Assembly (NCBI GenBank): GCA_041659405.1
Contig: JBAZYK010000003.1
Location: forward strand, 90,001-122,000
Origin: Candidatus Altimarinota bacterium
GTDB lineage: Bacteria > Patescibacteriota > Gracilibacteria > UBA1369
DNA length: 32,000 nt
Reading direction: 5' to 3'
Shown here: positions 25,783-28,687 of the stretch, piece by piece
Layout: every line of letters begins with the position of its first letter
Position numbering within the stretch: position 1 is the stretch's first letter
Notes under the pieces: model-generated
The model's input: the letters and a program-made list of their open reading frames with translations, nothing else
Databases searched by the model: none
What the model was told of the DNA's origin: nothing
Position numbers and translations under genes: made by a program

Positions 25783-27933
25783 ATGAAAAAAACAATCAGC
25801 ATGGTAATTATTTTATTAGGAATATTTACCTCAACCGTAGTTGTTCAAGCCCAAAACACCAGCATTGACGCCACCAGGGCCATCCCTAAAAATGTGGATA
25901 TCTATTTTTCTTTGGACACCACCGTTGCCAATCCACTCAGCAGCTTCATGCCTCAAATTGGTGAAGAAATGACTTTCATGATGACCGAAACCGGCGCATC
26001 AGCTACACAAACGCAAGCCATCAATACTCTCAAACCAAAACTGCTCAACAATCACTACGGAGTCGCTTTAAGAATGAATAAAACCGAGACCGCTCCTGCG
26101 GCGGCGAGTGATGCAGCCACCTCGGAAAGCTTTGTCACTTTGCATCTTTCCAGCACCGACTTTACCACGTTAACTACGGCTCTCGGCAATCCTCAAACAG
26201 AAACTTATAATGGCACAACCATCTATTATAACGATATCGCTTCCGTTGCCCTTTTGGGTAGCGACCTGGTGATCATGAATACCAATAAAGCAGGTTTGCA
26301 CGAAATGATTGACGATTATACTTCCGGCAACAATCTTCAAAACAATGCCAACTTCAGTGCAACCAAAGCCAAATTTTTACCATCCAGTTTTGCTGAATTA
26401 TACTTAAATCCGGCCACCACAGATCAACTCATGACCACCCAGTTTGGCATGGACGACACCGCTACTGTCAAAAACATTCTTCAAACTTTAACCAGTATGG
26501 GAGTTTCGGCGGCTCAAGGAAACAATAATATCCAAATCAGCTACTTCCTTAAAAGCGACAGTGCTAAACTGGCAGCTCTTAATTTGGCGCTAAACAATAA
26601 CTTTATCCCGGCAATTTATAAAAACATCGTTACCAAAAACATCCTTTTATACGTCGAACAAAACAATCTCCAAAAAACGATCCAGGACATTTTAACAATG
26701 GCTGGCGAATCGACCCAATTAGACAGCATTTCCACCGAGTTTCAAACCAACACCGGCTTAAATCTGCAAAATGACGTCTTGGCCGTATTAAACAATAAAT
26801 TTGCAATTTCCATCCACTCACAAGATAGCCAATATCCGGCCATCAGTCTGATTTTTGATGTTAAAAACAACCTCACCAAAGCTAACAACATCGTTACCAA
26901 ATTAAAAGATTACGCCTCCAAACAACCCGAAACTACCGTAACTACAACCACAATCAACGGCGCAACCTTTTACCAAGTTGGGGACACTTCAACTAAAATT
27001 TCCATGGGCGTCAGTGCCGATGGTTACCTTGTTTTAACAAACGGCAACGTCACGGATGTTCTTAACTCCAACGGAGCTTTATCCACAGACTCAACTTTCA
27101 CCGGCACAATGGGCCAACTCAATGATTCTTCCATCAATCAAATCAACTTCATCAATATCGACAATCTCCACTCCATAGCCAGTGGGCTTTTAAACATGAT
27201 GACAAGCGATCAAGATGGCAAAGATGCCATCAACGGCCTGCTTATACCATGGCACAGCATTGGCGTAAAAAGCAATAACAATAGCGACTCTCTTTGGGGC
27301 ACGATCAGTTTGAGTGTTGATCTAAACGGCTTTGCTCAATATCCGGCGCTAATCACCAAATTAATGACCAGCGAACTCGTTAATCCACCAAGACATTTCT
27401 GTGATGTAAAATCTTCGGATTGGTTCACTACACACGTCAACTCTTTAAGCAAAAAAGGCTACATCACAGGTTACTCCGATGGCTGTTTTCATCCGGGAAG
27501 CAACATTTCCCGTGCGGAATTTGTAACTCTACTCATGAAGGCAATGCCTTCTTTAACCTACCACGACGATCGCGCCAAACAATTTAAAGACGTTGCCAAC
27601 GGTGCTTGGTATAAAGATTATGTTGATTTGGCAGTCGAAAACGGGATCATTAAGGGATATGCCGACAATAGTTTCCATCCAAACGCTCCAATCGCCCGCG
27701 CTGAAGCAATTCAAATTTTGATGAACGTGGCAGCACAATTTCACCTGCTTGAGGATGCCAATTTAGCAACAGTATCTTTCCAAGACCTCAAAAAGTCCGA
27801 CTGGTACTTTAATGCAGTCCGGGATGCTCTAACACTCTCAATCATTTCCCCTTCCACCCGCTTCAATCCACGCTCCAGCTTGAATCGAGCCGAAGCAGCC
27901 AAGATTATCGACCTCTTCTTGCAACATCTTTAA
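25783..27933 (+). CDS. secreted protein with three C-terminal SLH domains
   Basis: Signal peptide MKKTISMVIILLGIFTSTVVVQA. Has three SLH-like units near the C-terminus (WFTTHVNSLSKKGYITGYSDGCFHPGSNISRAEFVTLLM, WYKDYVDLAVENGIIKGYADNSFHPNAPIARAEAIQILM and WYFNAVRDALTL...LNRAEAAKIIDLF). Confidence 0.8.
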   Translation: MKKTISMVIILLGIFTSTVVVQAQNTSIDATRAIPKNVDIYFSLDTTVANPLSSFMPQIGEEMTFMMTETGASATQTQAINTLKPKLLNNHYGVALRMNKTETAPAAASDAATSESFVTLHLSSTDFTTLTTALGNPQTETYNGTTIYYNDIASVALLGSDLVIMNTNKAGLHEMIDDYTSGNNLQNNANFSATKAKFLPSSFAELYLNPATTDQLMTTQFGMDDTATVKNILQTLTSMGVSAAQGNNNIQISYFLKSDSAKLAALNLALNNNFIPAIYKNIVTKNILLYVEQNNLQKTIQDILTMAGESTQLDSISTEFQTNTGLNLQNDVLAVLNNKFAISIHSQDSQYPAISLIFDVKNNLTKANNIVTKLKDYASKQPETTVTTTTINGATFYQVGDTSTKISMGVSADGYLVLTNGNVTDVLNSNGALSTDSTFTGTMGQLNDSSINQINFINIDNLHSIASGLLNMMTSDQDGKDAINGLLIPWHSIGVKSNNNSDSLWGTISLSVDLNGFAQYPALITKLMTSELVNPPRHFCDVKSSDWFTTHVNSLSKKGYITGYSDGCFHPGSNISRAEFVTLLMKAMPSLTYHDDRAKQFKDVANGAWYKDYVDLAVENGIIKGYADNSFHPNAPIARAEAIQILMNVAAQFHLLEDANLATVSFQDLKKSDWYFNAVRDALTLSIISPSTRFNPRSSLNRAEAAKIIDLFLQHL

Positions 27934-27949
27934 AATGGTTTATCCACAT

Positions 27950-27979
27950 AACAAAAACCCCACTTTTTTCAAAGTGGGG
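27950..27979 (-). terminator. intrinsic terminator oriented for a minus-strand transcript
   Basis: The minus-strand RNA reads CCCCACUUU-GAAA-AAAGUGGGG followed by UUUUUGUU. On the plus strand the same hairpin has no U tail. Confidence 0.65.
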
Positions 27980-27997
27980 CGGAATTCCGGGACCTTA

Positions 27998-28045
27998 TGG
28001 GTTCTCAAGTTAGAAAAATAAGTGAGAACTCAAGGTTTTTATTTT
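27998..28045 (+). terminator. probable terminator of the SLH gene
   Basis: On the plus strand, UGGGUUCUCA (27998-28007) pairs with UGAGAACUCA (28023-28032) with one G:U pair, followed by UUUUUAUUUU (28036-28045). Confidence 0.45.
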
Positions 28046-28473
28046 GGAATTTGTTTTTGTTTATAGCTGACTAAGCGTTTTTGTCTGCTGAGCTTTGGCT
28101 GAGGTTTTCAGTCCGGCCAGGGACCGTCCGTTGAGTGTGTTCTACAGATCACCGAAGTGATAAGACAGAGAACACCGGACCGCGGGAAGCGGTAAGAGCG
28201 TTAGTCATTCGCTTTACCAGCACTTAGCAAGGACAGAGAGAAGGTGAAAGTTCTAGGCACACTCGAGTATTAATGAGCATTTAGTTTGTGCAATTTTTTA
28301 GTAGCACACTCGCTAACACTCGTGTGTGGTGACGAAAGTTTCTAGGGCCGGCCTCCCAATCCCTTTTTTATAAGCGCACTTTCGTGCGTGGTGGCGGCAA
28401 ATTCATCCATTCACCTTCCTTTCTTTCTTTGCTATAGCTTTTTTACCGAGTTTTTAAAGACCTTTTTGTTTTT

Positions 28474-28500
28474 GAGGCGACCCGCCTTCTTTTTGTTTAT
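28474..28500 (+). terminator. weak plus-strand terminator-like hairpin (conflicts with the minus-strand RNA model)
   Basis: AGGCG-ACC-CGCCU (28475-28487) is followed by UCUUUUUGUUUAUUUUU. The whole local plus strand is T-rich, so the tail may be coincidental. Confidence 0.3.
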
Positions 28501-28522
28501 TTTTACTTTTTGTTTTCAAATC

Positions 28523-28550
28523 ATTGTATCAAATAAAAGATTTAACGCAA
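28523..28550 (-). promoter_or_regulatory. sigma70-type promoter with extended -10, reading into the ORF-free region
   Basis: On the minus strand: TTGCGT (28550..28545), 16 nt, then TGaTACAAT (-10 at 28528..28523). Confidence 0.45.
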
Positions 28551-28687
28551 ATTATTATCATATACATATCTGAAGATATTTTCTAATTCAAAAACGCGGC
28601 CGATTTCATCACTTACAGACTCAGTACACTTTATATTTCATATTTTAGTAAAAATTTAGAAAACGTTAATAAACACAGTGTATTTTC

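Follow-up and report, generated by a model that had tools for sequence, protein, structure and literature searches.

A candidate gene for a large, structured noncoding RNA of uncatalogued class in Peribacteria-type Gracilibacteria

Here, we identify a candidate gene for a large, highly structured noncoding RNA (ncRNA) in a 32,000-nucleotide (nt) stretch of the genome of a Candidatus Altimarinota bacterium (Patescibacteriota; Gracilibacteria; UBA1369; GenBank assembly GCA_041659405.1, contig JBAZYK010000003.1, positions 90,001 to 122,000), hereafter called the window and numbered from its first letter. Comparison with homologues makes it nearly certain that window positions 28517 to 27950 on the minus strand are a real, stand-alone gene for a structured ncRNA of ~565 nt. 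As the best overall explanation of this locus, we propose, with a probability of roughly 0.7, an independent gene whose product is a large, highly structured ncRNA of an uncatalogued class. Transcription would run from a sigma-70-type extended -10 promoter to an intrinsic terminator, both belonging to the gene itself. From 5' to 3', the RNA would consist of a variable A-rich leader, the long helix P0, a core with several branches (P1, P3, P4/P4b and P5) and a 3' domain (P7/P8), with the core locked by an H-type pseudoknot and the P3 loop kissing a downstream hairpin. Covariance searches place the predicted RNA across the Peribacteria-type order and in some further families of the Gracilibacteria class.

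Results

The evidence for a structured RNA comes from helices that persist while their sequences change. First, 20 core domains were aligned with MAFFT (A1), and the alignment was compared with a structure drawn by hand that comprises P1, P3, P4, P4b, P5 and the pseudoknot: 86% of cells were paired versus 37 to 43% when the partners were slid, the covariation score was 0.40 versus 0.11 to 0.15, and none of 500 shuffles attained the observed values. Second, a covariance model built from A1 (R1) was used to align 66 matches from many families, 63 of them distinct. In the resulting alignment of 63 sequences (A2), which is fitted to the model's own structure, 89% of cells were paired versus 34 to 43% with slid partners, the covariation score was 0.50 versus at most 0.13, and 36 of the 42 core pairs showed compensatory changes. 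Third, the pseudoknot, which lies outside R1, was paired in 95.5% of the A2 cells, and its outer pair was C-G in 39 sequences, U-A in eight and A-U in two. A preliminary description of the window had proposed a structured RNA of ~0.55 kb and of unknown class, and the helices kept by compensatory changes in the 63 distinct homologues bear this out. The signal of conservation and covariation in related genomes, on which that proposal was to be judged, is strong on both counts.

The core domain (28085 to 28230; all features of the RNA are given on the minus strand) scores 126 bits with R1 and 120 bits with a broadened covariance model (R2). It is closed by P1, in which UUGCU-AGU at 28230-28222 pairs with GCU-AGCAG at 28093-28085. 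P1 is followed by the P3 hairpin GGUAAAGCG/CGCUCUUACC (28218-28191), by the nested helix P4 (28180-28170 with 28142-28126), by the cUUCGg hairpin P4b (28161-28148) and by the P5 hairpin (28125-28110). In the pseudoknot (28096 to 28119), the P5 loop UGGC at 28119-28116 pairs with GCCA at 28099-28096. A UGG/CCA pairing proposed by RNAalifold was superseded by P3 and the pseudoknot, which covary; GAUGG/CCAAAG might also be read as resembling a tetraloop and its receptor. The conserved unpaired nucleotides are concentrated in the junctions (GAUGG, YUCAAAG, ACUGGAAAC, CCAAAG and CCCUAGAA), and the helices are flanked by A-rich linkers, as is typical where A-minor contacts stabilise an RNA.

The kissing contact, 5 to 7 base pairs (bp) long, joins UGACUAA in the P3 loop (28201 to 28207) to UUAGUCA (28074-28068) of the downstream hairpin D (28065 to 28076). 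Position 5 of the contact was C-G in 28, U-A in 18, U-G in three and G-C in two of 56 sequences, and the otherwise constant kissing core showed the double changes UGAU/AUCA, UAAC/GUUA and AGAC/GUCU. When anchors were picked independently on each side, 3 of 5000 partner permutations matched the observed pairing. This anchored per-position test superseded a measure of the longest contiguous complementarity, by which the mean was 5.7 for a sequence's own partner versus 5.3 across sequences. The stem of hairpin D was 80% paired, with compensatory changes in three of its four pairs.

In the 3' domain, an A-rich linker UAAACAAAAACAAA and then AAAAUAAAAA (28036 to 28063) surround the 5' strand of P7, AAUUCC at 28051-28046; AAAACAAAAACAAA is near-invariant within the family. 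The following part (27983 to 28035) contains the P8 hairpin, in which CCUUGAGUUCUCA at 28035-28023 pairs with UGAGAACCCAUAAGG at 28007-27993 around a conserved internal loop A / C..AU, and the 3' strand of P7 at 27988-27983. In a MAFFT alignment of the 3' domain from 32 sequences (A3), 93% of the P8 cells were paired and 10 of the 12 P8 pairs showed compensatory changes. P7 (AAAUUCC/GGAAUUU, with GGAAUU at 27988-27983) was paired in 76% of cells and becomes AAAUCUC/GAGAUUU in the type-3 copies described below.

Of the 24 other genomes (genera) sampled in the family, 17 contain a homologue by BLAST and nhmmer, over a stretch of ~310 nt (window ~27949-28260), and in the alignment the homologous copies all end in a GC-rich hairpin of differing sequence followed by a minus-strand U-run. 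With R1, the family gave matches in 35 of 36 genomes and in every one of 25 genera, each genome having one or two copies and the E-values, rough for both models, running from 1e-19 to 1e-34; in the order sample, 84 of 151 genomes had a match, and the scores drop with distance. In the class sample, R2 detected the RNA in 14 of 15 own-order relatives. It did so in other families of the class as well, namely f28 (11/13), f43 (4/7), f36 (3/7) and f25 (3/15), with single matches in f34 (weak) and f47. In the phylum-wide sample, R2 gave a single match outside the class, which at 21.7 bits was taken as noise. A 19-base pattern for the pseudoknot hairpin retrieves records of Candidatus Peribacteria, Peregrinibacteria, Gracilibacteria or "Patescibacteria group", all of which score 96 to 128 bits with R2; its four matches in other phyla are close to the chance expectation and none of them matches R2.

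The copies occupy recurrent places on the chromosome. Type 1 copies, including the window copy, stand in convergent orientation to the SLH gene, with a divergent gene for a DinG-like exonuclease-helicase on the other side; type 2 copies lie between an F420-ligase-like gene and mscS; and type 3 copies are beside valS or an ABC-F gene. The genome analysed here also has a type 2 copy (C1:~190648-191165, plus strand, 108.6 bits), which lies between the F420-ligase-like gene and mscS, shares the promoter word TACAATGATCTGAA with the window copy and is 69% identical to it over the stretch found by BLAST and nhmmer (C1:190866-191162). Because the type 1 and type 2 contexts are common to families f1, f9 and f17, the duplication is old, with both paralogues retained. 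In relatives, the DinG-like gene is the immediate divergent neighbour of the RNA. Here, it lies 8.4 kb away (C3:126963-128054), indicating that a restriction-modification (R-M) island was inserted between the DinG-like gene and the RNA promoter; orthologues without the island carry the same RNA. Judged by synteny, inheritance is vertical, with one or two ancient paralogues at fixed chromosomal places.

The ~8-kb island itself extends from window position 28560 through 32000 and on to C3:126963, and comprises a Type III-like R-M operon together with an AT-rich, palindrome-bearing upstream spacer.

The gene-free gap that contains the RNA is bounded by the gene for a protein with three SLH domains (25783-27933, plus strand) and by the first gene of the R-M operon (28862, plus strand). 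No minus-strand open reading frame (ORF) of at least 30 amino acids lies within 27950-28516, and the GC content rises to 0.53 at 28075-28224 versus 0.25 to 0.35 in the adjoining spacer. A coding function was rejected as no ORF is conserved; the mini-ORF region is one strand of P0, and its ATGs are not conserved.

Comparison of the homologues settles the strand of the predicted RNA as minus. Helix cells contain 245 G-U versus 70 A-C combinations on this strand, an excess that indicates the minus strand, and nearly all homologues have an upstream promoter and a downstream hairpin with a U-run in this orientation. The folding z-score of the 567-nt transcript is -6.0 for the minus strand and -5.1 for the plus strand, the latter because the complement of a helix-rich region folds too.

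The predicted sigma-70-type promoter (28523 to 28550, minus strand) consists of the -35 box TTGCGT at 28550-28545, a 16-nt spacer and the extended -10 element TGaTACAAT at 28531-28523, which places the predicted transcription start at ~28517/28516. The promoter is conserved as AATTTGCAAAA...GATACAATGATNTGAAA in the upstream alignment of the closest group, and the layout TTGnnn-N16-18-(TG)nTAYAAT-...TGAA/TGATT is present 5' of most copies across the class. A genome-wide search with the promoter word TACAATGATYTGAA gave a third exact match at C4:78497, inside an ORF of 531 amino acids. Approximately 25 nt 5' of the -35 box, an upstream element GAATTAGAAAATAT / (G)AATTAGAAAATAT (28576 to 28589, minus strand) is kept as AAATTAGAAAATAT in seven of eight aligned type 1 loci and in a degenerate form in the eighth; it may be an UP element or the site of a factor or regulator. 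The predicted intrinsic terminator (27950 to 27979) has a 9-bp GC-rich stem (27979-27971/27966-27958), a GAAA(A) loop and the tail UUUUUGUU (27957-27950). Among the 63 distinct homologues scanned, most have a promoter 84 to 415 nt 5' of the core, the terminator ends 73 to 180 nt 3' of the core, and 47 have a terminator hairpin and U-run at the same place but with a different stem sequence. These distances give predicted RNA lengths of ~290 to 600 nt with a variable 5' part.

The preliminary description had named most of these elements, and its listed features were all found within 1 to 2 nt of where it had placed them. The lack of a credible ORF and the raised GC content hold; the extended -10 promoter at 28550..28523 reads as listed, with the same layout conserved in most homologues; and the terminator at 27950-27979 is present and also reported by a pattern scan, as a minus-strand terminator with 10 pairs. 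The minus strand, which had been thought probable, is now supported by the promoter, by the hairpin and U-run in homologues and by the ratio of G-U to A-C, whereas what looked like a competing plus-strand terminator (28474-28500) belongs to the minus-strand RNA, as a hairpin in its variable 5' part. The proposed extent of ~0.55 kb fits the transcription unit of ~565 nt, but wide conservation is limited to the 3' ~310 nt.

The remaining ~255 nt at the 5' end are variable and partly unique to this genome. They begin with a leader (28420 to 28517) in which the A-rich tracts AAAACAAAAAG and CAAAAACAAAAAG are parted by small hairpins, e.g., GGCG-GGU-CGCC at 28486-28476. The sequence and length of this leader vary among relatives, and the whole part 5' of the core ranges from ~40 to 320 nt. 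The leader is followed by P0, a long helix directly 5' of P1 that covaries across the class, e.g., as GGAGAGCUAAGUC/GGCUUGGCUCUCC in L005 and as GAUUGAUGAGGGG.../...CCUCUCUCAAU in L013. Its 5' strand, GGAAGGUGAA (28410 to 28419), is a Shine-Dalgarno-like box and pairs in the minimum free energy fold with UUCACCUUC at 28248-28240. On the 3' side (28240 to 28257), the 3' strand UUCACCUUC is preceded by the conserved unpaired motif CCUAGAAC at 28257-28250; the motif (CAACG)CCCUAGAAC is retained in most aligned copies of the family. In this genome, the apical part of P0 (28258 to 28409) is enlarged by an insert with a CGCAC-GAAA-GUGCG hairpin at 28388-28375 and, at 28346-28328, the CCCUAGAAACUUUCGUCACC box for a second time. 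The insert reflects a partial tandem duplication, ~90 nt long, in which the CCCUAGAA-box region was repeated (window 28258-28346); in the alignment of type 1 copies, the extra stretch is seen only in L001 and the others are without the duplication.

This lineage-specific duplication explains several features that the preliminary description had singled out, i.e., the duplicated box, here CCUAGAA(A)CUUUC(GU)CACC at 28346-28328 and 28257-28243, the three copies of CACACUC and the GAAA-capped hairpin, which is indeed present in the insert. The proposed pairing of GAGUGUG with any of the three CACACUC copies was not upheld: the copies lie in the genome-specific stretch, and 28142-28137 instead pairs with 28175-28170, a pairing present in all homologues. 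By contrast, the nested helix with the cUUCGg hairpin is present and now spans 28180-28126, and the GGUAA(G)AGCG hairpin with its pseudoknot-like loop complement corresponds to the covarying kissing pair of UGACUAA (28207-28201) with UUAGUCA (28074-28068).

The predicted RNA matched no catalogued family. Rfam 15 (4227 models, including OLE, ROOL, GOLLD, raiA, HEARO, tmRNA, signal recognition particle [SRP] RNA, RNase P RNA, 6S RNA, riboswitches and ribozymes) gave no match at gathering thresholds in the whole window. At E ≤ 10 between 27850 and 28900, only three weak matches fell inside the RNA, over its 3' end and terminator, all far below threshold: anti-hemB (18.3 bits, E 0.17), SAM_alpha (14.1 bits) and Betaproteobacteria_toxic_sRNA (13.7 bits). 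The other matches at E ≤ 10 fell in the spacer outside the RNA, e.g., STnc40 with 24.2 bits (threshold 45). The Rfam check thus returned noise and leaves the suggested novelty standing. In the literature on ncRNAs of Peribacteria, Gracilibacteria or the Candidate Phyla Radiation (CPR), no description of this RNA was found. On these comparisons, it is very likely that the class has not been described before.

Housekeeping RNAs were sought individually. RNase P RNA is sited elsewhere in the genome (C6:80282-80714, 143.7 bits), as is 6S RNA (C11:55396-55551, 50 bits). An identity as transfer-messenger RNA (tmRNA) was rejected because the RNA has no tRNA-like end or domain and because five closed relatives with this RNA have a normal tmRNA elsewhere (103 to 124 bits). 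In the genome analysed here, a 21-contig assembly, ARAGORN found no tmRNA and RF00023 matched only tRNA-sized pieces elsewhere. Given the normal tmRNA of relatives, the tmRNA of this genome probably lies in an assembly gap, and its gene is perhaps at a contig end beside an integrated element. smpB is present (C10:50272-50748) though tmRNA was not found in the assembly.

An identity as SRP RNA was rejected because the protein partners Ffh and FtsY were undetected. RF00169 and RF01854 gave no match in the genome, the SRP_SPB domain (Ffh M domain) was found neither in this genome nor in five closed relatives, searches for an SRP54-type GTPase were negative in this genome, in 41 relatives and in samples of 151 genomes each from the class and the phylum, the DTAGR motif did not occur outside L31, and tblastn with an approximate E. 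coli Ffh query gave no match. SRP components were detected in all 14 control genomes. The SRP pathway, i.e., SRP RNA, the Ffh M domain and the SRP54-type GTPase (Ffh/FtsY), is seemingly missing altogether from this genome, the five closed relatives and the class and phylum genomes sampled. That many CPR bacteria lack SRP subunits has been noted before (PMC8080830). A link between the predicted RNA and the loss of SRP is not supported: the loss is phylum-wide and the RNA is confined to one class, and therefore the data do not link them.

Discussion

Covarying helices, a pseudoknot and a kissing contact, a conserved promoter layout and terminator, and vertical inheritance at syntenic places together favour an independent gene for a structured ncRNA. 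The near-universality in the family and the wide spread in the order, combined with vertical inheritance, suggest that it behaves as a core-like cellular RNA, and these ultra-small bacteria thus probably have a core RNA that had not been described before.

Some points weigh against this reading. The gene is known from sequence only, its strand, ends and fold having been read from sequence comparison. The pair counts in A2 are inflated by the fitting to the model's own structure; A1 and A3, which were aligned by MAFFT only, and the pseudoknot and kissing pairs, which lie outside the model, are without this bias. Moreover, the genomes are related, so that the counts are not independent. Approximately half of the class sample has no copy detectable by the present models and scores fall with distance, and for these reasons the term core RNA of the class is an extrapolation. 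The neighbours are unrelated housekeeping genes, none of which is common to all copies, and they indicate no protein partner. Lastly, the covariation fits an intramolecular and an intermolecular kissing contact equally well and does not distinguish them.

We give even odds to the idea that the RNA acts as a folded particle or scaffold, a proposal made by analogy. It would act in trans as a precisely shaped particle, either as the RNA subunit or scaffold of a ribonucleoprotein (RNP) or as an RNA-only homo-oligomer assembled via kissing loops, and would be neither an antisense regulator nor a cis element. We suggest this mode of action because the A-rich junctions are conserved and occur together with a pseudoknot and kissing loops, a combination that marks RNAs in need of an exact three-dimensional shape.

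The predicted RNA has a stand-alone gene, exceeds ~200 nt and combines numerous covarying helices with tertiary contacts, which places it in the descriptive group of large ornate bacterial ncRNAs, a grouping with OLE, ROOL, GOLLD and raiA that is by description and not by homology. OLE (RF01071) is similarly a stand-alone structured bacterial RNA of ~600 nt with many covarying helices, confinement to one lineage and a long-unknown function. OLE forms a defined particle, as a dimer and as an RNP with Oap proteins, and the predicted RNA may do likewise. However, OLE is found in anaerobic, extremophilic Firmicutes and adjoins its partner gene oapA, whereas the RNA described here is from the CPR, has no conserved protein neighbour and does not match OLE in sequence or structure. 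The raiA motif RNA is widespread, abundant and ~200 nt long and, like the RNA described here, is stand-alone and structured, with pseudoknots, an unknown function and a core-RNA-like spread in its phyla; it differs in size, fold and taxa (Firmicutes and Actinobacteria), and the RNA described here does not match it in Rfam.

Like the predicted RNA, ROOL and GOLLD are large and ornate, their junctions are A-rich, and they have kissing loops that covariation revealed. By cryo-electron microscopy (cryo-EM), the covarying kissing loops of ROOL and GOLLD are intermolecular bridges in RNA-only cages (PMC12286853), and it is conceivable that the contact between the P3 loop and hairpin D is likewise such a bridge. 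In contrast to ROOL and GOLLD, which are often associated with phages or tRNAs and are patchily distributed, the RNA described here is chromosomal, syntenic, vertically inherited, to judge from its contexts, and near-universal in the family, and it has no Rfam match.

Among alternative explanations, the best placed, though improbable, is that the RNA is a sponge whose repeated single strands rich in A, of the form (A)AACAAAAACAAA and readable as (AAN)n, soak up an RNA-binding protein, be it Hfq-like, S1 or some other protein that binds A-rich RNA. The precedents are the capture of Hfq/Crc by CrcZ and of CsrA by CsrB. As in these sponges, short single-stranded motifs are repeated between hairpins, and the (AAN)n-like tracts resemble those of CrcZ: the window RNA has four to five A-rich tracts and each homologue has several. 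Also, an exact 12-mer occurs six times in the genome, twice in the RNA copies and once directly before the ATG of a secreted-protein gene at C5:78071. However, sponges such as CrcZ and CsrB have no tertiary core in which a pseudoknot is conserved. In the RNA described here, the core is conserved and the tracts vary in number and position, except for the 3'-domain tract; in family f28, the tract is a mere pseudoknot linker. A pseudoknotted, kissing-loop core under strong covariation would be superfluous for a sponge, and A-rich linkers are expected anyway in the structured RNAs of AT-rich genomes.

At C5:78060-78085 (plus strand), the A-rich word CAAACAAAAACAAAC stands directly before the secreted-protein ATG and may be a leader motif shared with the tracts of the RNA; with six genome copies in total, the 12-mer is too rare to be weighed as a signal in 5' untranslated regions.

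Slightly less probable than a sponge is a large ribozyme, in which the conserved junction nucleotides would form an active site for some reaction. The size, the pseudoknot, the tertiary contacts and the near-invariant unpaired GAUGG, YUCAAAG, ACUGGAAAC and CCAAAG do resemble catalytic cores, but there is no similarity to an Rfam ribozyme family, neither a processing site nor a substrate is evident, and the large ornate bacterial RNAs have so far mostly not turned out to be catalytic.

It is very improbable that the RNA is a highly divergent tmRNA, SRP RNA, RNase P RNA or 6S RNA that escapes the Rfam models. This idea could draw on the near-universality in the family and the wide spread in the order, and on a genome in which tmRNA and SRP RNA are both undetected and SmpB is present. 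The RNA also shares with tmRNA a length of several hundred nt, richness in pseudoknots, A-rich single strands, a housekeeping-like spread and its own promoter and terminator. However, it has no tRNA-like domain, ARAGORN and RF00023 are negative, the tmRNA of relatives is at another locus, RNase P RNA and 6S RNA were found elsewhere, there is no SRP partner, and two paralogues per genome are atypical of a housekeeping RNA.

Least probable of all, and to the same degree, are a cis-acting element and a mobile or guide RNA. A cis-regulatory leader, riboswitch or long 3' untranslated region of an adjoining gene would agree with a large, structured element that adjoins conserved genes in relatives, but in all three syntenic contexts the terminator faces the 3' end of a convergent gene and no same-strand gene follows, the upstream neighbour is divergent, and the contexts differ between the paralogues. 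A miniature inverted-repeat transposable element (MITE)-like mobile or repeat element or a guide RNA (omega RNA, bridge RNA or tracrRNA) might be considered given the nearby Type III-like R-M island, which the window copy borders, and the occurrence of more than one copy per genome; against it, there are one or two copies only, they are 69% identical here and each is in an old syntenic slot shared across families, they have no terminal repeats, orthologues without the R-M island keep the RNA, and no transposase, nuclease or reverse transcriptase is a shared neighbour (the neighbours being SLH, DinG-like, F420-ligase-like, MscS, ValRS and ABC-F).

An independent ncRNA gene of an uncatalogued class would matter for several reasons. 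Large structured bacterial RNAs with a housekeeping-like distribution are few, i.e., rRNA, RNase P RNA, tmRNA, SRP RNA and 6S RNA, and ornate orphan RNAs such as OLE, ROOL, GOLLD and raiA are important targets of RNA structural biology. The RNA described here would add an ornate RNA from the CPR, a huge, uncultured and poorly understood branch of bacteria, with two paralogues that have been kept since before several families split. With a predicted tertiary structure that is well defined and shows abundant covariation, the RNA should be amenable to in vitro transcription, probing and cryo-EM without culture. We consider it an unlikely but attractive possibility that it is the founding member of a new core RNA class of Gracilibacteria and Peribacteria. 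It would then be a catalytic RNA, or else a particle, made of RNA alone or as an RNP, that is built up via the covarying kissing loops, and it would perform a housekeeping task. If so, this task would be one that other bacteria carry out differently; a speculative example is the handling of membrane proteins or mRNAs in organisms without SRP. For Peribacteria and Gracilibacteria, the predicted RNA would thus provide both a new marker and a functional puzzle.

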